Shown here piece after piece: positions 3,849 through 47,906 of a stretch of DNA of 64,000 bases; position 1 is the first letter of the stretch; every line of letters begins with the position of its first letter. Both the position numbers and the translations under genes were made by a program. Location: contig CAZWBG010000001.1 of the NCBI GenBank assembly GCA_964632215.1, forward strand, positions 313,336 to 377,335, written 5' to 3'. The DNA is from an uncultured Candidatus Saccharibacteria bacterium (GTDB taxonomy: Bacteria; Patescibacteriota; Saccharimonadia; Saccharimonadales; UBA7683). The notes beneath the pieces are model-generated. The model had not been told where the DNA came from. It made no database searches and worked only from the letters and a program-made list of their open reading frames with translations.

Positions 3849-4689
3849 GCATTCCTTTTTCTTCGAGTTTCTTCTGCTGCTCTTCTTGCTCAATGAATGA
3901 TTTATACTGCCGTGTAGCAGCATCTATGAGCGCCTGTACACGTTTCTCTTTTGTTTTGCCCTCACTAATAAAGTGTGCATTCAGGTTTTCAAGATTTGCC
4001 AGGATTACCAATTGCTGGATAGTTGCGTAGTCACGCTGGTTCTTGCCACTCTTGGCAAGCCTTGGGCTTGCTTGGCGCCATTCGGCAGCCGTTTGCCCAA
4101 AGACAATTTTGTTAAGTATATCGGCTTCGTCAGTGTAGACAAAGATTTGCTTTGACTTAGTGATGTTTAACGCTGGCAGTAAATCATTCTTAATAGAATC
4201 AGTGTGTAAACGATAGTTAACGCGTGACAAGTAACGGTGTGAGTCCCATTCAATAATATGCTGTTCTTGAGCCTTGAGTCGCTGGAACTCAACGATAATC
4301 AACAGCTTAAACTCTGGGCTCAGCCAAGTACCGAACTCGAAGGCAATATCTCTATGCGCATAGGTACCACCATACCGTCCAGCCTTGGCAATAATTCCTT
4401 TGGCGTTTACAGATTTTATCCACTGCTTCGCAGACAAGGTAAACCGATTCAATCCGGCTTGGTTTTTAATTCCCTCGAATTCGAGGGAATTAAAGCTAGG
4501 GTTATTTAATTGTTCCCAAACACCAAGAAACTCAAGTGTGTTTTTGTTACGCAGCCAATTGTCTATAACTCTGTCTGCACCGTAAGTTTTTGCCATGTCT
4601 GTTAAATAGATATAATCTTCGCCGTTTATCTTGGCGACATTAATTGCGCCACCATTTACATCCATAGATAAGTTGTTAACTGGCGTCAT
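3838..4689 (-). CDS. KilA-N domain-containing protein
   Basis: Contains YIYLTDMAKTYG...GGTYAHRDIAFEFGTWLSPEFKLLII, typical of KilA-N/ORF6N DNA-binding proteins, which are often found between hsdM and hsdS. Confidence 0.7.
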   Translation of the reverse strand: MTPVNNLSMDVNGGAINVAKINGEDYIYLTDMAKTYGADRVIDNWLRNKNTLEFLGVWEQLNNPSFNSLEFEGIKNQAGLNRFTLSAKQWIKSVNAKGIIAKAGRYGGTYAHRDIAFEFGTWLSPEFKLLIIVEFQRLKAQEQHIIEWDSHRYLSRVNYRLHTDSIKNDLLPALNITKSKQIFVYTDEADILNKIVFGQTAAEWRQASPRLAKSGKNQRDYATIQQLVILANLENLNAHFISEGKTKEKRVQALIDAATRQYKSFIEQEEQQKKLEEKGMHDA

Positions 4690-6254: not shown

Positions 6255-6452
6255 CTAGCCTCCAAATGCTAAATCCAGCATAGCATTTTTATATCTGTTT
6301 TGAAATTAAATCTAGATTAAAATTGGGGTTATTTTTTGTTTGTTGAGATCTGGTATACTTGGGTGTAGGTGAAGGAGCTTAAGTTAATTATGAGAATTTA
6401 GCATCCAATTTAATTTTTGAACCAATGTTTGTAACTGGAAAGGATGTTTTGT

Positions 6453-11515: not shown

Positions 11516-11590
11516 TAGGGTGTGGCCAAGTGGTAAGGCGCCAGGTTCTGGTCCTGGTATTCGGGGGTTCGAATCCCTCCACCCTAGCCA
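11516..11590 (+). tRNA. tRNA-Gln(CTG), CCA encoded
   Basis: Hand-folded cloverleaf: acceptor TAGGGTG/CACCCTA with U1-A72, anticodon loop TTCTGGT, T-loop TTCGAAT. Confidence 0.85.
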
Positions 11591-11624: not shown

Positions 11625-11688
11625 ACATTACTAAGCGATTCTAGAAATCGCTTGAACCGGGACAATCCGACTACCCAAGGAGAATACT

Positions 11689-12123
11689 GTGGATCTCGCC
11701 CTCATGGAAGAGAGCCTGAAGACTGCCCCCAGCCCTGGCGCAGCTGCTGCCATCTGGTGGACAACGGTCCTTCGGGACCCCAAGCACGACAACGGTGGTG
11801 ATGACCGAGCCAGCATGGTGAGCCAGATGATGGCTGACATGCTGACGCAGGAGAACCCCGTCGAAGCTGATGCCCTCGAGATCTTCGCTGGTTTCCTCAA
11901 AGAGGACATCGACAAACAAATCGAGGAAGGTCGAGAGGAGATCTCCATCGAAGTGGACTACCACCCCGACCGCATGCTCTCCGACTGCGCCGTGCGTGCC
12001 AACCTCAGGGTTCCCGAGATGGGATGGCCGTGGAAGACCCGCATGTGGGTCACTCCCAAGAGCGTCGAAGTCAGTTACGGCTACGGTGCCGAGGTCAAGA
12101 TCATCTGGGGCCAGGAGAGCTGA
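11689..12123 (+). CDS. hypothetical protein, GC-rich (cassette D)
   Basis: 144 aa, GTG start with AAGGAG upstream. Local G+C is 39/60 in 11701-11760 versus 18/60 in 12241-12300. All frames are open here, as expected for GC-rich DNA. Confidence 0.55.
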   Translation: MDLALMEESLKTAPSPGAAAAIWWTTVLRDPKHDNGGDDRASMVSQMMADMLTQENPVEADALEIFAGFLKEDIDKQIEEGREEISIEVDYHPDRMLSDCAVRANLRVPEMGWPWKTRMWVTPKSVEVSYGYGAEVKIIWGQES

Positions 12124-12155
12124 CACACTACCTGGGTAGTGGATCGAATCCAATC

Positions 12156-16729: not shown

Positions 16730-17042
16730 AAAGTTCCCTTGAAAATTATTAAATGATGCTTATGGCAATAAGTGTAGCATATTTATCTACGCGTCTATTC
16801 ACCGTCTTGTAAATTCGTCTGTAGTAAACCTCTACATATAGTGCTTACGCTACCTATGGCACACCACCCCTAGTACATGTTGATAGAAAGTTAAAAAAGT
16901 AATAAAAAACTCTTTACAAACTGCTTATATGGTTGCTAGTATGGTGACAAGCTCAGGGAAACAAAAATCTAAAATAAAAAAGATCTTCCCACGGTGAGCG
17001 TTCCATCACCACAACAACTTATTATATTTAAAAGACGATCCC

Positions 17043-17067
17043 CAAGGGTCGTCTTTTATCTTCCCTG
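17043..17067. terminator. bidirectional intrinsic terminator downstream of trmD
   Basis: AGACGATCC-ccaa-GGGTCGTCT flanked by an A-run and a T-run. Confidence 0.65.
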
Positions 17068-17091
17068 AAGTTCAATCAGTATTTTATAAGT

Positions 17092-17733
17092 TTATTTATT
17101 TTCTTGGCGCCACTTAGCAATTTCGCTGTGGTTACCGCCCAATAACGTTTCGGGTACCTGCATACCGCGGAACTCTGCTGGCCGAGTATAATGCGGTGCT
17201 TCAACTGTTTCATCATCTTCTACAAAGCTTTCTATCTCAGCACTGGTTTCACCACCCAGAACTCCAGGCAACAACCGCACAACGCTATCTGCAATTATCA
17301 ACGCCGCCAGCTCACCACCAGTTAGTACGTAATGACCAATGCAGATCTGCTCGTCTACCACACTCATAATTCGCTCGTCGTAGCCCTCGTAGCGCCCACA
17401 AATGATTATGAGCCCGTGATCCGCCTTTGCATATCTATCGGCTACAGACTGCCTCCAGAGCGTGCCGCGTGGTGTTGCAAGCATCACTTTGGCGGTTGGA
17501 TCTTGAGATTTAGCATGCCCAACTGCTTTTATAAGCGGCTCCACCATCAAAACCATGCCGTCTCCCCCGCCGTAAGGTGTGTCATCTACTTGCTGGCGCG
17601 GACCAAGGCCAAAATCACGTAGTTGAATGATCGCAAACTCTGCTGCTTTAATATCTTGGGCTTTGTAAAGCATTGAGCTATTTAGGTAGCCCTCTACCAT
17701 TTCTGGAAATAATGTAATAATCTGTATTTTCAT
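17092..17733 (-). CDS. trmD: tRNA (guanine37-N1)-methyltransferase
   Basis: Contains ITLFPEM...DDTPYGGGDGMV...ICGRYEGYDER...YVLTGGE. Confidence 0.9.
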   Translation of the reverse strand: MKIQIITLFPEMVEGYLNSSMLYKAQDIKAAEFAIIQLRDFGLGPRQQVDDTPYGGGDGMVLMVEPLIKAVGHAKSQDPTAKVMLATPRGTLWRQSVADRYAKADHGLIIICGRYEGYDERIMSVVDEQICIGHYVLTGGELAALIIADSVVRLLPGVLGGETSAEIESFVEDDETVEAPHYTRPAEFRGMQVPETLLGGNHSEIAKWRQENK

Positions 17734-17755
17734 CTTATATACAGTGTAGCTTGTA

Positions 17756-17784
17756 TTGACATTTTTTACAATATCTGCTATAAT
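17756..17784 (+). promoter_or_regulatory. consensus sigma70 promoter TTGACA-17-TATAAT (cassette A)
   Basis: Exact consensus hexamers with a 17-nt spacer, divergent from trmD. Confidence 0.7.
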
Positions 17785-17788
17785 CCCA

Positions 17789-17863
17789 TTAATCTTTTGG
17801 AGTTTTCAGGAGATAGCACCGTGTGCGGAAATATAAGTACGCACCAAACAACCAGGAGAAGAT
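17789..17863 (+). promoter_or_regulatory. conserved 5' leader RNA, copy 1
   Basis: 17789-17852 is 64/64 identical to 18467-18530. It contains the hairpin GUGCG-N12-CGCAC and three GGAG-type boxes. Confidence 0.6.
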
Positions 17864-18262
17864 ATGTTGGATACAGTCACGGAGTCCATCGATCTCGCTG
17901 AAGTCACCCCGGAACAGGAAGTACGAATCAGTATTGATGACAAGCACGCCTTATTGTTTCGTATCGACCCCCCTTCCATCTTCGATGAAAGCTATGTTTT
18001 CGGTATTGAGATCTCACGTCTCAAGCTGATCATGGGTGCATCCGAAGGTCACGTCGGTGGCCAATTCATCGACCTCAATGAGGTCAATATGGATGACATA
18101 ATCGAGGTAGTGGGGTTCATCGTTCCGCCAAGTCCCCATACCAGTGTGCAGCGCAACCTGGAGATCGGAAGAAGCTTCTATATCACGGGCGTTGGCTACG
18201 AGTACCTTCGACAAGAGACGCGCGGAACCATCACCTCCATCGAGGTATATGAAAGGTTTTAG
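17864..18262 (+). CDS. small hypothetical protein, cassette A (paralog of 18542-18955)
   Basis: 132 aa with AGGAGAAG as RBS. Shares IEV..IVP.S..T.V...L..G......ITG.GY......G.I.SIEV with cassette B. Confidence 0.6.
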   Translation: MLDTVTESIDLAEVTPEQEVRISIDDKHALLFRIDPPSIFDESYVFGIEISRLKLIMGASEGHVGGQFIDLNEVNMDDIIEVVGFIVPPSPHTSVQRNLEIGRSFYITGVGYEYLRQETRGTITSIEVYERF

Positions 18263-18291
18263 ACTTCCTGTATACCTTTTCACCCTGGTTG

Positions 18292-18344
18292 GGGCAGTTG
18301 TATCTAAGTAGCACATTTGGTGCTAACAAACGATATGACTGCCC
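18292..18344 (+). other. 13-bp-stem bipartite hairpin preceding hammerhead 1
   Basis: GGGCAGUUGUAUC pairs with GAUAUGACUGCCC, enclosing the inner hairpin UAGCAC-AUUUG-GUGCUA. It covaries with copy 2. Confidence 0.7.
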
Positions 18345-18347
18345 AAA

Positions 18348-18402
18348 ATCACTTCAGTAATTGTGTAATTACTCTGATGAGTTCAAAAGAACGAAAAGTG
18401 AT
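18348..18402 (+). ncRNA. type III hammerhead ribozyme, copy 1
   Basis: AUCACUU C AGUAAUU-GUGU-AAUUACU CUGAUGA GUUC-AAAA-GAAC GAA AAGUGAU. All invariant core positions are present (C3-A9, G12-A14, A15.1-U16.1, C17, G10.1-C11.1). Predicted cleavage is between 18355 and 18356. Confidence 0.85.
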
Positions 18403-18432
18403 GTAAATGATTGATATGGTTTTCGGGTTATA

Positions 18433-18461
18433 TTGACTTATCTTGTAATATCTGCTATAAT
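18433..18461 (+). promoter_or_regulatory. sigma70 promoter TTGACT-17-TATAAT (cassette B)
   Basis: Starts 31 nt after hammerhead 1. There is no terminator between them. Confidence 0.65.
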
Positions 18462-18466
18462 TTAGC

Positions 18467-18541
18467 TTAATCTTTTGGAGTTTTCAGGAGATAGCACCGT
18501 GTGCGGAAATATAAGTACGCACCAAACAACTAGGAGAAATT
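18467..18541 (+). promoter_or_regulatory. conserved 5' leader RNA, copy 2
   Basis: Identical to copy 1 over 64 nt. Confidence 0.6.
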
Positions 18542-18955
18542 ATGCTGGCAACGCAGCAGGCTGTTGATCTTTCGACCTGCAACACGGATCAAGTTATACG
18601 TGTCGTATTCAGTGACAAAGACGGGTTCGGGTCCATCTTCGACTTGAGACTTAAGACACAAGACGACTCGTTCACCGTCAGCGATGACTACCTTACGGGG
18701 GTAGAAATTGCGGTTATTACGACCACCTTCGAAAGCATCGACCCTAAACCAGGTGGCCGCCACCTCAAGAGCAATGAAACCACACGCATGATCGAGGTCA
18801 CAGAGCTCATCGTTCCTGCGAGTGCCTACACCAACGTGTGTCGGCATCTAACAGTTGGTAACTCCTCTCTACCACTCATTACTGGCATAGGATACCTCAG
18901 GCTTGCAGACGAGATCCACGGATCCATTAAGAGCATTGAAGTCAGAGCAGCCTGA
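18542..18955 (+). CDS. small hypothetical protein, cassette B
   Basis: 137 aa. A diverged paralog of cassette A, at roughly one third identity by eye. Confidence 0.6.
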   Translation: MLATQQAVDLSTCNTDQVIRVVFSDKDGFGSIFDLRLKTQDDSFTVSDDYLTGVEIAVITTTFESIDPKPGGRHLKSNETTRMIEVTELIVPASAYTNVCRHLTVGNSSLPLITGIGYLRLADEIHGSIKSIEVRAA

Positions 18956-18980
18956 ACGCTCACAACATATCTCCTGGTCG

Positions 18981-19033
18981 GGGCAACCATGTCTAAACAG
19001 TACATTCGGTACTCGTAAACGATGTGGTTGCCC
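18981..19033 (+). other. 13-bp-stem bipartite hairpin preceding hammerhead 2
   Basis: GGGCAACCAUGUC pairs with GAUGUGGUUGCCC, enclosing the inner hairpin AGUAC-AUUCG-GUACU. Changes relative to copy 1 are compensatory. Confidence 0.7.
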
Positions 19034-19036
19034 AAA

Positions 19037-19091
19037 ATCACTTCAGTAATTGTGTAATTACTCTGATGAGTTCAAAAGAACGAAAAGTGAT
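19037..19091 (+). ncRNA. type III hammerhead ribozyme, copy 2
   Basis: Sequence identical to copy 1. Predicted cleavage is between 19044 and 19045. Confidence 0.85.
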
Positions 19092-19118
19092 GTGAGCACA
19101 AATTAGATAGAAACTAAA

Positions 19119-19145
19119 AGAACCCCGTAAGTGCAGGGTTCTTTT
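19119..19145. terminator. bidirectional intrinsic terminator (cassette B converging on the KH gene)
   Basis: AGAACCC-cgtaagtgca-GGGTTCT flanked by AAAA and TTTT. Confidence 0.6.
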
Positions 19146-19239
19146 ATCACATATAAAGCTCTCTAGTTTTCCTAGACTCGCAAGCGAGCTTTGGTTTTGT
19201 CATGTGTTTATTTTTGTTTGTCCGTGGTGAACATAAGAA

Positions 19240-19671
19240 TTATATATCAAGATCATCGAGGTCCGCAAGCTCTTTTCGAGTCTTTTCGGTTAGATTCTCT
19301 TCCTCGTTTTCCACAGTCTCATCTTGAAACTCCTCCACAGGCTTGTCATCAGTACTATCATCTGATGTAGTATCATCATCTTGAGCTACCGAATGGATAG
19401 GTGTAGTGGCACCACTGCCGCCATCACTATCAACAATCTTGAGGTTATAGCGAGCATCATTCTTTGTACCAAGCGCTCGTAGCAATGTGCGAATGCTCTG
19501 CGCCGTACCACCGCGCTTACCAATAACTCGGCCGAGATCGTCAGGAGCTACGGTAAGTGCCAAAAGTACACCTTTCTCATCAATAGTACGTTCGACAGAA
19601 ACTTCATCAGGGTTACTGACAAGAGCTTTTACTACAAATTCTACAAATTGCTGGTCAATGCTTGCTGACAT
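19240..19671 (-). CDS. KH-domain RNA-binding protein (KhpA/YlqC-like) with an acidic C-terminal tail
   Basis: Contains LGRVIGKRGGTAQSIRTLL, the GxxG KH motif. It sits directly downstream of rpsP, the conserved position. Confidence 0.8.
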   Translation of the reverse strand: MSASIDQQFVEFVVKALVSNPDEVSVERTIDEKGVLLALTVAPDDLGRVIGKRGGTAQSIRTLLRALGTKNDARYNLKIVDSDGGSGATTPIHSVAQDDDTTSDDSTDDKPVEEFQDETVENEEENLTEKTRKELADLDDLDI

Positions 19672-19772
19672 AAGGTCTCCTCTGTTAGATAACTTCTCAA
19701 TCTAGTGTAGCATAAAAATAAAAGCTGCCGAAAGATATACTCGGCAGCTCTACTATATTATGAAGTTCAGAT

Positions 19773-20282
19773 CTATTTCTTTGATTCTTTTTCTTCAGCT
19801 TCAGGCTTCTCTTCTGAAACTTCTTCTGTCTCTGGCTTAACTTCTGCCTCAGGAGCAACAACCTCTGCCGCAGGAGATTCGGCTACTTTAGCTGGAGTTT
19901 CTTCAACCACAACTTCTGTCACAACCTCAGCTGGAGTCTCGGCAACCTCTTCAACTACCTCTTCCTTGGGAATGTTTCGTCGAAGTTTTTCAGCATGCTT
20001 GATAGTCTTAGTCTTATCGGTTGCAGTCTTCTTAACCCAACCTGGTAGAGTAACTTTTTCTGATTCAAAAACACGTACCACACGGTCAGATGGTTGAGCG
20101 CCATGTGTTAGGTAATATTCAGCTTTTTCTTTATCAAGTGTGACTGCTTTAGTGTGCGGATCAAAACTACCTAAATTAGCTACTACACGGCCGCTGGTAG
20201 GCTGACGGTGAGATTCTTGTACGATTACTCGATATTGGGCGAGACCTTTACGGCCAACTCTTTGCATACGAATTGCTAACAT
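19773..20282 (-). CDS. rpsP: 30S ribosomal protein S16 (bS16) with an acidic C-terminal extension
   Basis: Begins MLAIRMQRVGRKGLAQYRVIV. Confidence 0.9.
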   Translation of the reverse strand: MLAIRMQRVGRKGLAQYRVIVQESHRQPTSGRVVANLGSFDPHTKAVTLDKEKAEYYLTHGAQPSDRVVRVFESEKVTLPGWVKKTATDKTKTIKHAEKLRRNIPKEEVVEEVAETPAEVVTEVVVEETPAKVAESPAAEVVAPEAEVKPETEEVSEEKPEAEEKESKK

Positions 20283-20334
20283 CTAAAAATTACTTCCCTT
20301 CGACAATATGAATTTAATAAAACAATCTTGAGTA

Positions 20335-20363
20335 ATTATACAGATGATGACCCCTAAAGTCAA
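20335..20363 (-). promoter_or_regulatory. sigma70 promoter TTGACT-17-TATAAT for rpsP
   Basis: Read on the minus strand. It starts 17 nt downstream of hammerhead 3. Confidence 0.6.
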
Positions 20364-20380
20364 CTGAGGTACACTACTTT

Positions 20381-20435
20381 GTCACTTTTCGCGTTTTTAC
20401 GCTCGTCAGAGTAACCGCACAGTTACTGAAGTGAC
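20381..20435 (-). ncRNA. type III hammerhead ribozyme, copy 3
   Basis: Minus strand: GUCACUU C AGUAACU-GUGC-GGUUACU CUGACGA GCGU-AAAA-ACGC GAA AAGUGAC. The core is intact (N7 = C is allowed). All three stems carry compensatory changes relative to copies 1 and 2. Cleavage falls after the C complementary to 20428. Confidence 0.8.
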
Positions 20436-20437
20436 AC

Positions 20438-20524
20438 GGGTTAGCGGAGAAAAAGATAATAGGGAGAGTCAGTATGAGCTGACATCGAATCCATATTATA
20501 GAACTTTTTCTACGACGCTACCCC
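20438..20524 (-). other. long imperfect GGG...CCC hairpin preceding hammerhead 3
   Basis: GGGGUAGCG pairs with CGCUAACCC, AGAAAAAG with CUUUUUCU, and AUAAUA with UAUUAU. CCUGG lies just upstream. Confidence 0.5.
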
Positions 20525-20587
20525 ATGACCTGGAATCTCCAGGGTTTTACTCGAGTTTAACGCTTCGAGCACGCGTAACGCCCTTAT

Positions 20588-20941
20588 CTAGGAGACTGTC
20601 TTGCTGTTGAGAATGATCTCTCGGACGACACCAGTTCTCCCATTGTTGATAAAAATGATACCGCCCACTCGGAATATCCGAGAGATAACGTTATGTTTAG
20701 GATATCGAGTGACAACACCATGTATGTCAGTGTCCGTCTGAATGGCAACACCGTTGATATTATCCCGAGCAATTTTCGGCTCCTTCACCGTGATGAAGTG
20801 CCAAGTTGAATTTTCCGTACACACGGTGACAACGTCACCGGGGTCAGTACTAGCGAAATCGAGTTCGACTTGACGTATACCATCTCGAACACGATTGTCC
20901 GAGAACCTTGCTACTCCGGATATCCCGCTATGTTCATCCAT
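20588..20941 (-). CDS. small hypothetical protein, cassette C
   Basis: 117 aa with GGAGAT as RBS. Only weak C-terminal resemblance to cassettes A and B. Confidence 0.55.
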   Translation of the reverse strand: MDEHSGISGVARFSDNRVRDGIRQVELDFASTDPGDVVTVCTENSTWHFITVKEPKIARDNINGVAIQTDTDIHGVVTRYPKHNVISRIFRVGGIIFINNGRTGVVREIILNSKTVS

Positions 20942-21019
20942 TGGATCTCCTGTCCAATAGTTATCTGTCAGCGTTTCTAACAGATATAAACATTCGCCGA
21001 ATGCGAATGTTCAATATAA

Positions 21020-21048
21020 ATAATACAATTTAAGTGTTATTGGGTCAA
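21020..21048 (-). promoter_or_regulatory. sigma70 promoter TTGACC-17-TATTAT (cassette C)
   Basis: Lies immediately after the rnc stop. Followed by a leader hairpin AACAUUCGC/GCGAAUGUU (20989-21011). Confidence 0.55.
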
Positions 21049-21049
21049 T

Positions 21050-21754
21050 TTATTTGGATTCGTAAAATTCAAGGGCTTCTTCGGCGGCTTTTTGTTGGGC
21101 AGCTTGTTTGCTGCTACCAGATCCTGAGCCTCGAAGCTGTGAGCCAATAAACACGCCAAGTGTAAAGATTTTGTCGTGATCAGGCCCGTCTTCAGAGAGC
21201 ACTTTGTACTGAGGCGTTTGATTGTCTTTCTCCTGCGCTACCTCTTGTAAGTAGCTCTTTGGGTCACGCCACGAGCCAGTTTCTAGAATTTGTGGCAAAG
21301 TAGCAATAATTTGAGCATCTATAAACAACTTGGCGTGGTCATAGCCTTTGTCTAGGTAAATAGCACCAACGACAGCCTCAAAACTATTGGCTAAAATCTG
21401 CTGACGGGCTCGATCGGTACCGCGTTTCTCTCCGCGGCTTAAACGGAGCATACTCTCGAAGTTCAATCTGGTAGCTGCCGCACCAATGCTCTCAGTTCGC
21501 ACTAAAGCACTGCGCCAGTTAGTTAAAATTCCCTCTGGCTCGGTGTAGGTTTTATACAAAAATTCGGTTACTACCAACTCCAGCACAGCATCACCAAGAA
21601 ACTCGAGACGCTCATTGTGTTCTTGAGCTGACTTTTTGTGTTCGTTAATGTAGCTACGATGCGTAAAAGCCTGCATTAACAGAGCGGGGTCTTCGAAGGT
21701 AAAGCCAAAATTGGCCTGGGCAAAGTCTTGGTAAGGTTGCGTATTAAGGTTCAT
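21050..21754 (-). CDS. rnc: ribonuclease III
   Basis: Contains NERLEFLGDAVLELV (the RNase III signature) and a C-terminal dsRBD. Confidence 0.9.
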   Translation of the reverse strand: MNLNTQPYQDFAQANFGFTFEDPALLMQAFTHRSYINEHKKSAQEHNERLEFLGDAVLELVVTEFLYKTYTEPEGILTNWRSALVRTESIGAAATRLNFESMLRLSRGEKRGTDRARQQILANSFEAVVGAIYLDKGYDHAKLFIDAQIIATLPQILETGSWRDPKSYLQEVAQEKDNQTPQYKVLSEDGPDHDKIFTLGVFIGSQLRGSGSGSSKQAAQQKAAEEALEFYESK

Positions 21755-46216: not shown

Positions 46217-46675
46217 TCAGGCCACCTCATCTTCGTGCTCCTCGGCCATCTGTACGGCGATCAGCTTGAGAGCCATCGCTAGTTTCTGAACATCCGGTTG
46301 TGGTCGAGCGACACCCATCACAGGTACCTGGTTCCGCTTCGGTGGCTTCATCACTGAGTCCCTCGAAACTGCGTATAGCAGGCGGTTGAAGGTCTGGACG
46401 TCACCATGAGCGTTGTCAAACGCCCTCCCGTAGATTCGCTTCATGCGGAGAAAGGCTTTGCTGGCCCGATTCGGCAAGCTCTTGTCTTGGGTGCCGATAG
46501 TCTTCCAGTGCTCTCTGAGCTGTTCGTCGGTCAGATCCTCGGTAGGGCGGTAGTACTGGTGTACATCCAGCTGCTGGGCATGGGGAATCACCGCGAAGAG
46601 GGTCTGGCATATTTCCCAGGCATGCTTTAGTGTGTCGTGTCGCTCCCAGAAGCTGATGTAGGTGATGCGAGGCAT
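46217..46675 (-). CDS. hypothetical protein
   Basis: 152 aa, tightly packed behind 46678-47562. Confidence 0.5.
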   Translation of the reverse strand: MPRITYISFWERHDTLKHAWEICQTLFAVIPHAQQLDVHQYYRPTEDLTDEQLREHWKTIGTQDKSLPNRASKAFLRMKRIYGRAFDNAHGDVQTFNRLLYAVSRDSVMKPPKRNQVPVMGVARPQPDVQKLAMALKLIAVQMAEEHEDEVA

Positions 46676-46677
46676 GC

Positions 46678-47562
46678 TTAAGGGTGTAGTTTTCCGAGAG
46701 CTTTGGCTTGTTCACTCATTACCTCTAAAGCTGTTTCCAGCAAGTCCTTTTCGTCCTTCTGCGGATGCTTCGAGATACTCTCCGAGGGGGACGCCATGAT
46801 CGTCTGGATGGCAGTTGCAAGAACGGGGATGACCTGCTCTCTTGTTGCCTCGACCTCGGCCTCTTTTCGAATCATGTCTCGGTATGCTTCGAGTGATAGA
46901 GAGACTGATGATTTGAATCCGTACTCTTCACGGTATCGCTTGGCTTTGGAGAATTGCCTTGTCGAGAGGACAACCCAATAGACCACAGGTGCGCCAATCA
47001 AGAGCTTACGGACAATTAGCTGAGGACTGATGTCTTGACCAGCAGTTGCATCTTGAAACCAGAGTGCAAGCACAAGGCTTACGGCTAGTGCAATAGCGGT
47101 CGAAACGCACCACAGTAGGGCGCTCTTTCTGTATCGTTCCTGAGCTTCATCGAATGCGTGAAATAGGCCAGCTGCAGTCGCAGTTTTGAGTAGGGCAGTA
47201 ACGGTCTCTTCCTGACCCTTCACCTCAACTGCAACCGCCTGAGCCTCCTGCACTAGCGTAGCAGTCTCCTTCTCAAGTGTTTCTTGAGTGATCTGGGCCT
47301 GCTCCTGAGCCTTCTTTGCTTTCGTGATCTCCTCTTCGAGACTCTGCCGTCGGGTTTCTAGGTCAGCGTGAAGCTGTTCGACCTGAGCCCTCGACACGTC
47401 CGTCTTGTTGAAGTTAGCTTCGGTTTCTGATGCCTTTTGCGCACTACTGGAGACTGTCTGCTCGAGTTCGGTCTTGAGTTCTTCTATCCTGGCCTTCAAA
47501 TCAGCAACCTGCTGAACCTGGGTTTTCCAAAGTCGTTGTGCGTCTCGTGTAGTGGTACTCAT
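46678..47562 (-). CDS. coiled-coil protein with a central 2-TM hairpin
   Basis: The N-terminal 130 aa show a heptad-like E/K/Q-rich pattern, followed by two TM helices (LLWCVSTAIALAVSLVLALWF, LLIGAPVVYWVVL). Confidence 0.55.
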   Translation of the reverse strand: MSTTTRDAQRLWKTQVQQVADLKARIEELKTELEQTVSSSAQKASETEANFNKTDVSRAQVEQLHADLETRRQSLEEEITKAKKAQEQAQITQETLEKETATLVQEAQAVAVEVKGQEETVTALLKTATAAGLFHAFDEAQERYRKSALLWCVSTAIALAVSLVLALWFQDATAGQDISPQLIVRKLLIGAPVVYWVVLSTRQFSKAKRYREEYGFKSSVSLSLEAYRDMIRKEAEVEATREQVIPVLATAIQTIMASPSESISKHPQKDEKDLLETALEVMSEQAKALGKLHP

Positions 47563-47830: not shown

Positions 47831-47906
47831 TGGTGCGGGTAAGGAGACTCTAACTCCTGGCCTCTTCCTTGGCAAGGAAGCGCTCTAACAACTGAGCTAT
47901 ACCCGC
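47831..47906 (-). tRNA. tRNA-Gly(GCC), CCA encoded
   Basis: Cloverleaf with anticodon loop TTGCCAA. The T-loop is TTAGAGT and position 19 is U, which looks like a U19-A56 swap of the usual G19-C56 pair. Confidence 0.8.

Follow-up and report, generated by a model that had tools for sequence, protein, structure and literature searches.

Small orphan genes in hammerhead-ribozyme cassettes of a Saccharibacteria chromosome

Three small ORFs, here called A, B and C, lie in the window analysed, a 64,000-nucleotide (64 kb) stretch of the genome of an uncultured Candidatus Saccharibacteria bacterium. Each belongs to a cassette with the order sigma-70-like consensus promoter, two-hairpin leader with a Shine–Dalgarno sequence, ORF, stable 3' hairpin and type III hammerhead ribozyme. 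Cassette A, on the plus strand, begins with a promoter (17756..17784; TTGACA-17-TATAAT with TG upstream) that matches 12 of 12 consensus positions, followed by a leader (17790..17863) in which the second of two hairpins, GUGCGG-AAAUAUAAGUA-CGCAC, precedes the Shine–Dalgarno sequence AGGAGA. ORF A (17864-18262) is then succeeded by a strong 3' hairpin (18292..18344; fold z-score -3.85) and by the hammerhead (18346..18404; predicted cleavage after C18355). Cassette B follows on the same strand with a promoter matching 11 of 12 positions (18433..18461; TTGACT-17-TATAAT, TG upstream), a leader (18467..18541), ORF B (18542-18955), a strong 3' hairpin (18981..19033) and a hammerhead (19035..19093; predicted cleavage after C19044). 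The two leaders are 95% identical over 82 nt, the differences between the two 3' hairpins are compensatory, and the hammerheads, each scoring 75.2 bits with R1, our custom covariance model for hammerheads, are identical at 59/59 positions, with predicted cleavage sites 689 nt apart. A hairpin and T runs (19115..19146), common to the end of the A-B array and the convergent KH gene, probably form a bidirectional terminator; the terminator scan lists this element for the minus strand, and the sequence suggests that the plus strand uses it too.

Cassette C is encoded on the minus strand. Its candidate promoter, tentatively assigned, matches 10 of 12 consensus positions (21020..21048; TTGACC-17-TATTAT), and its leader (20942..21012; fold z-score -4.47) again has two hairpins and AGGAGA, the first hairpin perhaps also serving as the rnc terminator. 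ORF C (20588-20941) is followed by a structured 3'UTR of several hairpins (20438..20587; fold z-scores -3.9 and -4.5) and by a hammerhead of the CUGACGAG variant (20379..20437; 67.7 bits with R1; predicted cleavage after C20428), directly downstream of which lies a promoter-like site for rpsP (20335..20363; 11 of 12 consensus positions). The preliminary description had placed all three ORFs in cassettes running from promoter to hammerhead, and this was borne out by the three promoter matches and three hammerhead cores, where 0.12 matches to the core pattern would be expected by chance. Searching the 64 kb window with R1 revealed no hammerhead besides these three; Rfam RF00008 gave scores of 42.8 and 29.1, below its gathering threshold of 48.5, and did not match hammerhead C.

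The products of ORFs A and B are soluble, acidic proteins of 132 and 137 aa (pI 4.4 and 4.9, respectively) which had been proposed to be paralogous. Indeed, they align by BLASTP over 131 residues with 32% identity (E=3e-17), and the C-terminal pattern quoted in support of the proposal lies within this alignment. The same description had grouped ORF C with them on the basis of a loosely similar tail, and here the results differ: BLASTP gave no match of C against A and only E=0.6 against B, and profile–profile comparison of C with A/B gave a probability of 0.7%, so the tail is not supported as homology and the 117 aa, neutral-pI product of ORF C belongs to a second, separate orphan family. A hydrophobic stretch of 19 residues is present in none of the three proteins, in agreement with the stated absence of a transmembrane helix. 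Nor could any of them be assigned to a known family, as had been surmised, with no explanatory match in Pfam, PHROGs, PADLOC, NCBIfam or PDB sequences and no Foldseek match accounting for either orphan family. Among 1.84 billion representatives searched exhaustively with HMMER there were only three true A/B members, the third (P0003) being a called gene in the syntenic trmD/KH slot of another Saccharibacteria MAG. The C family has at least nine members, none with a Pfam domain, and a profile built without ORF C recovers ORF C (E=2.6e-6) and nothing else. Whereas the structure model for the A family was unusable (pLDDT 39), the AlphaFold2 model for the C family (pLDDT 67, pTM 0.62) contains seven strands, from which an all-beta fold is predicted with moderate confidence; Foldseek searches with this model returned nothing at E below 0.04 or TM above 0.4. 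C-family cassettes occupy different positions, rnc/rpsP in the window, trmD/KH in loci L028 and L039, and a site beside an HTH gene in L131. A hammerhead is present in all five C-family loci with enough 3' sequence, starting about 84 nt past the stop codon in the three complete P0010 loci.

The ORFs were also said to be richer in G+C than neighbouring genes, and the 30 G+C counted in 18541-18600 are as described. The enrichment is clear for A and B, which are GC3 outliers (0.609 and 0.580), but only marginal for C (0.483), the 65 ORFs of the window having a mean GC3 of 0.420 (sd 0.068). Another GC-rich island, in which Pfam finds no match, adjoins a tRNA gene at 46217-47562. Long antisense ORFs occur at 18014-18316 and 18530-18847. 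GC-rich sequence is poor in stop codons, and it could be argued from this, from the antisense ORFs and from the greater A–B nucleotide identity of the flanking RNA elements (88% and 77.5%, against 46.5% for the ORFs) that the frames are accidental openings in a structured non-coding RNA which is itself the functional product. Such an explanation appears scarcely credible, and a non-coding reading is largely refuted by the properties of the ORFs. A and B retain their protein similarity despite so low a nucleotide identity, GC shows codon-position periodicity (GC3 > GC1 > GC2), the Shine–Dalgarno sequence stands at the correct spacing before each ORF, and the reading frame persists in L001 and in nine members of the C family. 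Conservation as coding sequence, which the preliminary description had left to be checked, is reflected in dN/dS values below 1 (0.24-0.60 among C-family members and, with synonymous sites close to saturation, about 0.5 between A and B) and in an excess of third-position changes (40 of the 71 differences between the L028 and L127 ORFs). We conclude that A, B and C are very probably real cargo proteins of hammerhead-terminated cassettes.

The cassette layout is widespread in Saccharibacteria and carries fast-changing, GC-rich genes found almost nowhere else. At least 118 genome stretches, chiefly of Saccharibacteria, contain the hammerhead subclass, which follows highly diverse ORFs there, about 88% of them orphans. 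The 101 cargo ORFs cluster into 81 singletons and 14 small clusters, and only about 12 have any Pfam match; ordinary-looking cargo of membrane or cell-surface type comprises four GT2 cellulose-synthase-like proteins, four DUF350 proteins and one MFS transporter, and one further ORF matches the Thoeris inhibitor Tad4. Tandem arrays are found in L012, L052, L067 and L080 as well. Within the literature library searched, no paper linked hammerheads to Saccharibacteria, Patescibacteria or TM7. Across loci the GC3 of the cargo is 0.715, against 0.483 for neighbouring genes, the cargo being higher in 84 of 95 comparisons (p=6e-16); the L001 cargo reaches 0.79 at a locus with a GC of 0.43.

Variation of the cargo is apparent at the trmD/KH slot, where promoter, leader and ribozyme are kept across genomes and the ORF varies, some genomes holding A-type genes and others genes of C type. 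The promoters and leaders of the window, L001, L028 and L039 are orthologous although their ORFs do not all belong to one family, and the leader is conserved in these four genomes with compensatory changes in its hairpins. L028 and L127 have identical trmD genes (100%) and yet their ORFs differ with dS=0.62, although this divergence is mosaic and also touches other poorly constrained stretches nearby, and so is no proof of selection on the ORF. One explanation for such variation, combined with the high GC3 of the cargo relative to its surroundings and the occurrence of the second GC-rich island beside a tRNA gene, is that cargo genes are recent horizontal gains from donors of high GC content, for example the actinobacteria that serve Saccharibacteria as hosts, or their phages, the GC-richness being a donor signature and the hammerhead cassette a mere landing or insulation site for foreign genes. 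We consider this origin unlikely. Among about 15 billion proteins no homologue of the A/B or C family was found beyond Saccharibacteria-type contexts, and only seven hammerheads of the subclass were found in 2.9 million viral contigs, all seven of them in phages of low GC content, where the context differs. Moreover, the step in composition falls at the boundaries of ORF and 3' hairpin, the promoter, leader and hammerhead being AT-rich and orthologous across genomes.

A further feature of the cassettes is the predicted pairing of the two mRNA ends. The whole-mRNA partition function for cassette A predicts base pairs between a 3'UTR segment, UUUUCACCCUGGUUG (18277..18291), and that mRNA's ribosome-binding region, CAACCAGGAGAAGA, with probabilities of 0.43-1.0, and of at least 0.93 in an 8-bp core (leader -16 to -9); in L001 an A to G change in the leader is accompanied by a U to C change in the 3'UTR. 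In cassette B the segment UCUCCUGGUCG (18970..18980) has the Shine–Dalgarno region CAACUAGGAGA as its predicted partner, with probabilities of 0.53-1.0 (at least 0.92 for nine of ten pairs) with a 75-nt leader and weaker pairing with a 60-nt leader. Predicted pairs of this kind have probabilities close to 1, accompanied by compensatory changes, in five cassettes (A, B, L001, L028 and L039); folding predicts none in cassette C. More generally, 5'–3' complementarity of at least 9 nt occurs in 34% of cassettes, against 3.5% of non-self pairs, with covariation, whereas pairing that involves the ribosome-binding site is only weakly above chimeric controls among 68 cassettes (mean 3.3 versus 1.5 nt; at least 6 nt in 16 cassettes versus 9 controls). 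The preliminary description had expected abundant, tightly controlled products. Abundance may be a wrong expectation, as the predicted masking of the Shine–Dalgarno sequence in A and B points to translation that is restrained or stored and not just to a high yield.

Masking of the ribosome-binding site in these five cassettes, together with the strong promoters, raises the question of whether the transcripts are mRNAs of the hok type: A, B and C, harmful when made, would then act as toxins or arrest growth, and 5'–3' fold-back would keep the full-length mRNA inert, translation starting only after 3' trimming or another trigger. In L028 and L039 only a few nucleotides separate the masking segment from the 3' end that the ribozyme is predicted to make, and trimming there could take the segment away. 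In A and B, by contrast, it lies upstream of the strong hairpin and would therefore be protected from trimming. At 117-137 aa, soluble and lacking a hydrophobic segment, the proteins are unlike type I toxins; neither an antisense RNA nor a partner gene was identified, and A and B are tandem paralogues and not a toxin–antidote pair. This explanation is accordingly thought improbable.

The identical hammerheads of the A-B array, with no plus-strand terminator in the 689 nt between them, allow yet another explanation, that the cassettes represent, or descend from, units that move or circularise as RNA and take the ORFs with them. Two cuts would free a 689-nt RNA ending in a 5'-OH and a 2',3'-cyclic phosphate, and its ligation could yield a circle; the other tandem arrays, the several slots used by C-family cassettes and the helix joining 5' and 3' ends in many cassettes are consistent with this. 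Most cassettes, however, combine one hammerhead with a promoter of their own, which would make the 5' end a triphosphate, and neither a reverse transcriptase nor an integrase was found among the neighbours. Perreault et al. searched for circles and for spliced RNAs made from bacterial hammerheads in tandem, without detecting either (PMC3088659), which also argues against circularisation, and we regard such an origin as very unlikely.

The explanation we favour on balance is that A, B and C are variable orphan cargo of ribozyme-terminated, end-paired mRNAs; every functional step beyond the anatomy of the cassette we infer. The hammerhead would cut the nascent transcript just past the hairpin to leave a defined mRNA 3' end with a 2',3'-cyclic phosphate, thereby supplying a 3' end without an intrinsic terminator and parting A from B, and C from rpsP. 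The partner of the 3'UTR segment would then be the ribosome-binding region, replaced in other cassettes by the 5' terminus of the leader, and their pairing would give a closed, nuclease-resistant and translationally restrained mRNA. A 3' hairpin of the same kind is present in nearly all related cassettes. The variable part of such a unit is the cargo, with alleles that differ strongly even among otherwise identical strains. A, B and C are best read as small, soluble, fast-evolving and strain-variable accessory proteins restricted to the lineage. Because slot cargo and alleles vary between genomes and strains, they may be factors under diversifying or frequency-dependent selection, for example binding or inhibitor proteins in epibiont conflict. 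That the cargo acts in conflicts of the epibiont with its host bacterium or with phages is a doubtful proposition and the weakest step, resting on the one Tad4 match, on orphan status and on analogy with hammerhead-flanked prophage genes, which include the anti-restriction gene ardA (PMC3088659); the ordinary-looking membrane or cell-surface cargo speaks against it.

The closest precedent is that of Perreault et al. (2011), in which hammerheads flank individual variable prophage genes, as in the triple hammerhead around ardA of Agrobacterium tumefaciens (PMC3088659). There, as here, single genes of inconstant identity are bracketed, sometimes in tandem, and a role in single-gene mRNA processing was proposed. 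The cassettes described here differ in lying amid the core genes trmD, KH, rpsP and rnc and neither within a prophage nor near an integrase, in having their own consensus promoter, conserved leader, strong 3' hairpin and 5'UTR-complementary 3'UTR segment, and in carrying cargo that is strongly GC3-enriched and nearly all orphan. For the icaR mRNA of Staphylococcus aureus, control of translation by 3'UTR/Shine–Dalgarno pairing has been shown experimentally (Ruiz de los Mozos et al., 2013; PMC3868564). In a similar manner, a pyrimidine-rich anti-Shine–Dalgarno 3'UTR segment is predicted here to pair with the ribosome-binding site of its own mRNA, but many cargo genes unrelated to one another have the motif, next to a hammerhead, and icaR has no ribozyme. 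With hok/sok type I toxin mRNAs the cassettes share a long-range 5'–3' helix, here predicted, that closes the mRNA and masks translation signals, and a 3' end whose position could control activation; they differ in a 3' end that a ribozyme would set, in proteins that are not small hydrophobic peptides and in that no antisense RNA was found. Like integron gene cassettes, they form arrays of single, highly diverse ORFs that are largely orphans, with a structured, imperfect inverted repeat behind each one, and the content of a fixed slot varies between strains, yet they have their own promoters and end in a hammerhead instead of attC, with no integrase or attI in the neighbourhood examined. Finally, the type III hammerhead and a tandem spacing of about 0.5-1 kb are reminiscent of retrozymes and viroid-like circular RNAs, from which these cassettes are set apart by being DNA-encoded in a bacterial chromosome and protein-coding, with their own promoters and usually one ribozyme each.

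ORFs A (17864-18262, + strand, 132 aa), B (18542-18955, + strand, 137 aa) and C (20588-20941, - strand, 117 aa) lie exactly where the preliminary description had placed them. They are surrounded by housekeeping genes, namely trmD (17092-17733, -), a KhpA-type KH-domain gene recognized by a Pfam match (19240-19671, -), rpsP (19773-20282, -) and rnc (21050-21754, -), the last followed by a NUDIX gene and nusB, and the same neighbours are found at the syntenic loci of related genomes (L001, L028, L039 and L127-L130). The nearest relatives of the source genome are Saccharibacteria metagenome-assembled genomes (MAGs). Two of the neighbouring products have tails that vary among related genomes: the S16 protein encoded by rpsP (169 aa in total) ends in a long, low-complexity C-terminal extension with many E, A, P and V residues, and the KH protein has an acidic D/E/T-rich tail.

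On present evidence, A, B and C are genes. A full HMMER search with a profile of A and B against 1.84 billion representatives retrieved one new member, P0003 (132 aa, E=6.6e-11), a called gene located in the trmD/KH interval of a Saccharibacteria MAG and surrounded by the same promoter, leader, hairpin and hammerhead as in the window; a second protein from this search, P0004, was rejected as a spurious repeat protein. Other routes to A/B relatives yielded the query itself only (word-index search), no relatives in metagenome contigs (pattern scan with tblastn confirmation) and three chance matches only (scan of metagenomes for the leader pattern). ORF C used as sole query found no relatives, two hammerhead-linked ORFs of other genomes resemble it, and a profile of seven proteins of the C family from which ORF C had been left out recovers ORF C alone, at E=2.6e-6. 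A hammerhead is present at all five C-family loci with enough downstream sequence. Estimates of dN/dS range from 0.24 to 0.60 among C-family members and are about 0.5 for A against B, a pair in which synonymous sites are near saturation. Two C-family alleles, those of L028 and L127, differ at 71 sites, of which 40 are third codon positions. The outcome that would have told against the preliminary description, ORFs not conserved as coding sequence, is thus not what is seen, given the recovery of P0003 and the C-family members, the ratios below 1 and the third-position excess.

That description had also treated A, B and C as one family of unknown function, a view which stands for the ORFs themselves, for the paralogy of A and B and for the lack of a known family, and fails for the inclusion of C. 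A and B share 32% identity (BLASTP, E=3e-17), with the proposed C-terminal pattern present in the alignment, whereas C shows no relation to either by BLASTP and a profile-profile probability of only 0.7% by hhalign; the single family is therefore rejected in favour of two. None of the three proteins contains a hydrophobic 19-residue stretch; the predicted pI is acidic for A (4.4) and B (4.9) and neutral for C. Pfam, PHROGs, PADLOC, NCBIfam and PDB sequences all lack an explanatory match: the best Pfam match for A is not significant (E=0.24) and there is none for B or C, the families found by PHROGs, PADLOC and NCBIfam scans of 101 cargo ORFs (those upstream of a hammerhead, including A, B and C) do not account for these three, and PDB profile searches had no match for A/B and none better than E=0.22 for C. 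An AlphaFold2 model of A from two sequences is unusable (pLDDT 39). That of the C family, from a seven-sequence alignment, is a moderate model with seven beta strands (pLDDT 67, pTM 0.62), for which the best Foldseek matches in PDB and BFVD have E values of 0.05-0.3 and TM scores of 0.2-0.4; many of these weak matches are to Sm/LSm proteins and generic small barrels, too weak for fold assignment (a small beta-barrel fold would call for a TM score above 0.5). A/B and C are new orphan protein families.

Each ORF is the cargo of its own cassette. The promoters match the sigma-70 consensus at 12 of 12 positions for A (a perfect TTGACA-17-TATAAT), 11 of 12 for B and 10 of 12 for C, and the leaders of A and B, 95% identical over 82 nt, each contain two hairpins and an AGGAGA Shine-Dalgarno sequence. 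A strong hairpin lies 3' of each stop codon, with compensatory differences between A and B, and is followed by a type III hammerhead (A, 18346-18404, +; B, 19035-19093, +; C, 20379-20437, -). The hammerhead core pattern occurs three times in the window against 0.12 expected. The catalytic core of hammerheads comprises CUGANGA and GAAA, an A15.1-U16.1 pair and a non-G nucleotide at the cleavage site; CUGA(U/C)GA, GAAA, the A-U pair and C17 are present in all three. The type III form has three helices about this core, helix III being the open one, and covariation supports the base pairs. Across 100 related hammerheads, 92.4% of cells are paired compared with 34-44% in slid controls, and 13 of 18 pairs show changes on both sides. 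Helices II and III covary without having been selected for pairing, helix II being 99.8% paired though not a selection criterion, while the pairing percentage of helix I is not independent evidence because helix I pairing served as a filter in choosing the 100 sequences. The Rfam model RF00008 (Hammerhead_3) scores B at 42.8 and A at 29.1 bits, below its gathering threshold of 48.5, and does not match C; R1, a covariance model of this subclass built from the 100 sequences, scores A and B at 75.2 bits each and C at 67.7, and finds no further hammerhead in the 64-kb window. No RNA family besides the hammerhead has an Rfam match at E<=1 in 17500-21300. Between cassettes A and B, nucleotide identity is 88% in the promoter and leader, 77.5% in the 3'UTR with its ribozyme and 46.5% in the ORFs, and the ribozymes themselves are identical at 59 of 59 positions.

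Two further elements adjoin these cassettes. A promoter-like site for rpsP (TTGACT-17-TATAAT, 20335-20363, -) begins only 16 nt past hammerhead C, so that this ribozyme may protect the ribosomal-protein operon against transcription running on from cassette C. Three genomes (window 19150-19195, L028 at about 3990-4050, L039 at about 6283-6335) share a conserved non-coding block, CACATATAAAGCTCTCTAG...CTAGACTCGCAAGCGAGCTT, in the stretch that separates the cassette terminator from the 3' end of the convergent KH gene; this block may be a small RNA or else belong to a 3'UTR of the KH/rpsP operon.

Partition functions were computed for complete predicted mRNAs, which run from the leader to the cleavage site; these folds supersede leader/3'UTR energies from duplexfold, which are uninformative because that method ignores intramolecular structure. 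Pairing of the ribosome-binding region with the 3'UTR is predicted as near-certain in five of the six cassettes folded (A, B, L001, L028 and L039), and none is predicted for cassette C. In cassette A the predicted partners are CAACCAGGAGAAGA and UUUUCACCCUGGUUG (18277-18291), in cassette B CAACUAGGAGA and UCUCCUGGUCG (18970-18980), and in L001 CAGCCAG and CUGGCUG, a leader A-to-G change being matched by a U-to-C change in the 3'UTR. In L028 and L039 the Shine-Dalgarno sequence and AUG are predicted to pair with the segment between hairpin and hammerhead, again with matched changes. More broadly, exact complementarity of at least 9 nt between the last ~30 nt before helix III and the cassette's own 5' region is found in 34% of cassettes, compared with 3.5% of non-self pairs. 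In one subclass (L019, L043, L045, L048, L049, L073, L075, L077, L086, L101, L106 and L114) a leader motif, UUGACAAGCAGAC, placed after a sigma-70-like promoter and then a first hairpin, CUUUGUNGAG...CUCCAAAG, is complementary to GUCUGCUUGUCA, which lies 2-4 nt ahead of helix III of the hammerhead; covariation of these motifs from one cassette to another implies a helix that encloses the whole ORF. Masking of the ribosome-binding site is only weakly positive in 68 cassettes compared with chimeric controls, and for this reason we predict it for the cassettes located between trmD and the KH gene and for a subset of others, not universally.

The anatomy of the cassettes is shown by these analyses, and from it we infer a course of expression in which transcription would begin at the strong promoter and ribosomes could load while the message is still being made. 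The hammerhead would then cleave the nascent RNA, leaving a 3' end with a cyclic phosphate just beyond a stable hairpin and freeing the polymerase's downstream RNA, which would be the next cassette in the case of A and the rpsP promoter region in the case of C. The completed message may finally fold closed, so that both ends are protected and further initiation is restrained. Such a layout argues for tightly limited or stored expression over a simply abundant product, and the abundance proposed in the preliminary description is doubtful.

A survey of one genome per GTDB species found the hammerhead subclass in at least 118 genome stretches. Among the loci listed, 57 of 80 are Saccharibacteria according to their record titles, and most others are unclassified or from other Patescibacteria. 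Among the matches listed, nearly all hammerheads are well-formed type III, and a same-strand ORF usually ends ~100-130 nt upstream of the core, with a strong hairpin between. The 101 cargo ORFs among these matches fall into 81 singletons and 14 small clusters, and only about 12 have a Pfam match: four GT2 cellulose-synthase-like proteins, four DUF350 proteins, one MFS transporter, one DUF4419 protein, one match to the Thoeris inhibitor Tad4 and one iPGM, which is probably unlinked. The same hammerhead subclass was found in only seven viral contigs. A phage origin of the cassettes was considered and rejected, as all seven viral hammerheads are in low-GC phages and follow a non-coding stretch rather than a cargo ORF. 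In these IMG/VR contigs (L120-L126; GC 0.27-0.37) the hammerhead comes after a terminator and ~200 nt of non-coding sequence, preceded in L120 and L124 by a second, partial core that resembles a hammerhead.

Codon use that is GC-rich compared with the surroundings had been noted for A, B and C, and is borne out for A and B by GC3 values of 0.61 and 0.58, and only marginally for C (0.48), against a mean of 0.42 (sd 0.07) for 65 ORFs of the window. Among the matches listed, cargo ORFs have a mean GC3 of 0.715 versus 0.483 for other long ORFs of the same loci and exceed them in 84 of 95 cases (Wilcoxon p=6e-16), so that A and B, with their modest excess, are a local instance of a strong general rule. 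Three causes of the excess can be envisaged: biased gene conversion at a recombination hotspot, with which the tract boundaries between L028 and L127 agree; selection for mRNA stability; and foreign origin, which is disfavoured because no outside homolog was found. Elsewhere in the window, a second GC-rich island (46217-47562, -) adjoins a tRNA gene (47834-47906) and contains two ORFs of 152 and 294 aa (GC3 0.70 and 0.52) lacking a Pfam match. A hairpin-plus-T terminator of the ordinary kind, without a hammerhead, closes this island, and upstream of it there is a long hairpin (about 47690-47630). GC content reaches its highest value per kilobase in the window (0.51) around 11631-12153, by another tRNA gene (11516-11587), where overlapping ORFs at 11671-12153 (-) and 11689-12123 (+), with GC3 of about 0.62, have no convincing Pfam match.

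The slot between trmD and the KH gene is occupied by a cassette in the window, L001, L028, L039 and L127-L130. Its promoter and leader are orthologous across all of these, with a conserved GUGCGG...CGCAC leader hairpin and compensatory changes in the first leader hairpin. The gene that occupies the slot differs, however: the window and L001 have one of A type there, and L028, L039 and L127-L130 one of C type. The C-type cassette lies elsewhere in the window, in the rnc/rpsP interval, and in a further locus, L131, it adjoins an HTH gene. Between L028 and L127, trmD is 100% identical (dS=0) while the cassette ORFs share 74% protein identity with dS=0.62, the divergence setting in at the ORF and ending at the hammerhead. 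The simplest reading is recombinational exchange of diverged alleles, although the comparison is mosaic and nearby loosely constrained stretches differ too. Targeted hypermutation of the kind produced by a diversity-generating retroelement (DGR) is excluded because the substitution spectrum is unbiased, not adenine-specific, and enriched at third codon positions, and in addition no template-like repeat besides the paralogous cassettes was found in 17000-21500 and no reverse transcriptase among the neighbours of a syntenic locus. Over L028 1600-5000, trmD and the 1.7 kb upstream of it are 100% identical to L127, and the differences lie in discrete patches (the cassette ORF with its hairpin, the post-hammerhead spacer, the acidic C-terminal tail of the KH protein, the KH-rpsP spacer and the S16 tail), a pattern that suggests patchwork recombination or chimeric assembly. 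In its behaviour the cargo resembles a set of accessory genes that vary from strain to strain.

By analogy with ardA, a hammerhead-flanked prophage gene (PMC3088659), and given one Tad4-like cargo, we favour for such a gene set a role in conflict with hosts or phages, tentatively and at less than even odds. A bolder and separate idea is that the cassettes form a dedicated system for long-lived, masked messages whose cargo acts in or on the host, in the strongest version with mRNAs or cassettes being transferred to the host and translated there. High-GC Actinobacteria are known hosts of cultivated Saccharibacteria, and cargo codons are GC-ending, as is typical of such bacteria, against the AT-ending codons of the epibiont itself. 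These host-like codons, the predicted sealing of the mRNA ends by hairpin, cyclic phosphate and 5'-3' pairing, and a hypervariable orphan cargo reminiscent of effector repertoires all prompt the idea, which we nevertheless regard as very improbable.

The gene regulation and parasitism genes of Saccharibacteria and other ultrasmall epibionts, with their tiny genomes, are to our knowledge largely unknown, and we know of no settled answer to the biological role of bacterial hammerheads, a question open since 2011. If the present reading is true, an entire class of bacterial mRNAs, in well over a hundred species, routinely receives its 3' ends from a natural self-cleaving ribozyme, which would supply a concrete and testable answer to that question. 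The ribozyme would also be a sequence tag for strain-variable orphan genes, which are the strongest candidates for factors in host interaction or anti-defence. A, B and C are three of these, and their small, well-defined locus beside trmD would be accessible to manipulation in the Saccharibacteria strains for which genetics is now possible. The cargo GC3 excess (+0.23) is an unexplained compositional anomaly, worth study in itself.

As an architecture the cassette is general and open to testing, and it is apparently undescribed: in the library of papers searched, none links hammerheads with Saccharibacteria, Patescibacteria or TM7, which is not proof of novelty. Type I toxins are small hydrophobic peptides of ~60 aa or less, to which proteins of 117-137 aa without a hydrophobic 19-residue stretch are a poor fit; the 5'-3' fold-back predicted in A, B, L001, L028 and L039 (not C, and only weakly above controls across 68 cassettes) would resemble that of hok-type mRNAs. 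Integron cassettes consist of promoterless ORFs expressed from a common promoter, Pc, with attC sites, the IntI integrase and attI. The cassettes described here share their array-of-orphans logic but each has its own promoter and a 3' hairpin followed by a hammerhead, and no integrase was found among the annotated neighbours of a syntenic locus. Pairing between 3'UTR and ribosome-binding site, as predicted for the present cassettes, is known from icaR of Staphylococcus aureus (PMC3868564). The closest precedent is provided by the hammerheads that flank variable single genes, including ardA, in bacterial prophages (Perreault 2011; PMC3088659). In both cases single flanked genes vary in identity (81 of the 101 cargo ORFs among the matches listed here are singletons), yet the present cassettes differ in having chromosomal housekeeping genes as neighbours rather than a prophage or integrase neighbourhood, and in their private promoters and conserved leaders, their predicted 5'-3' pairing and their GC3-rich orphan cargo.
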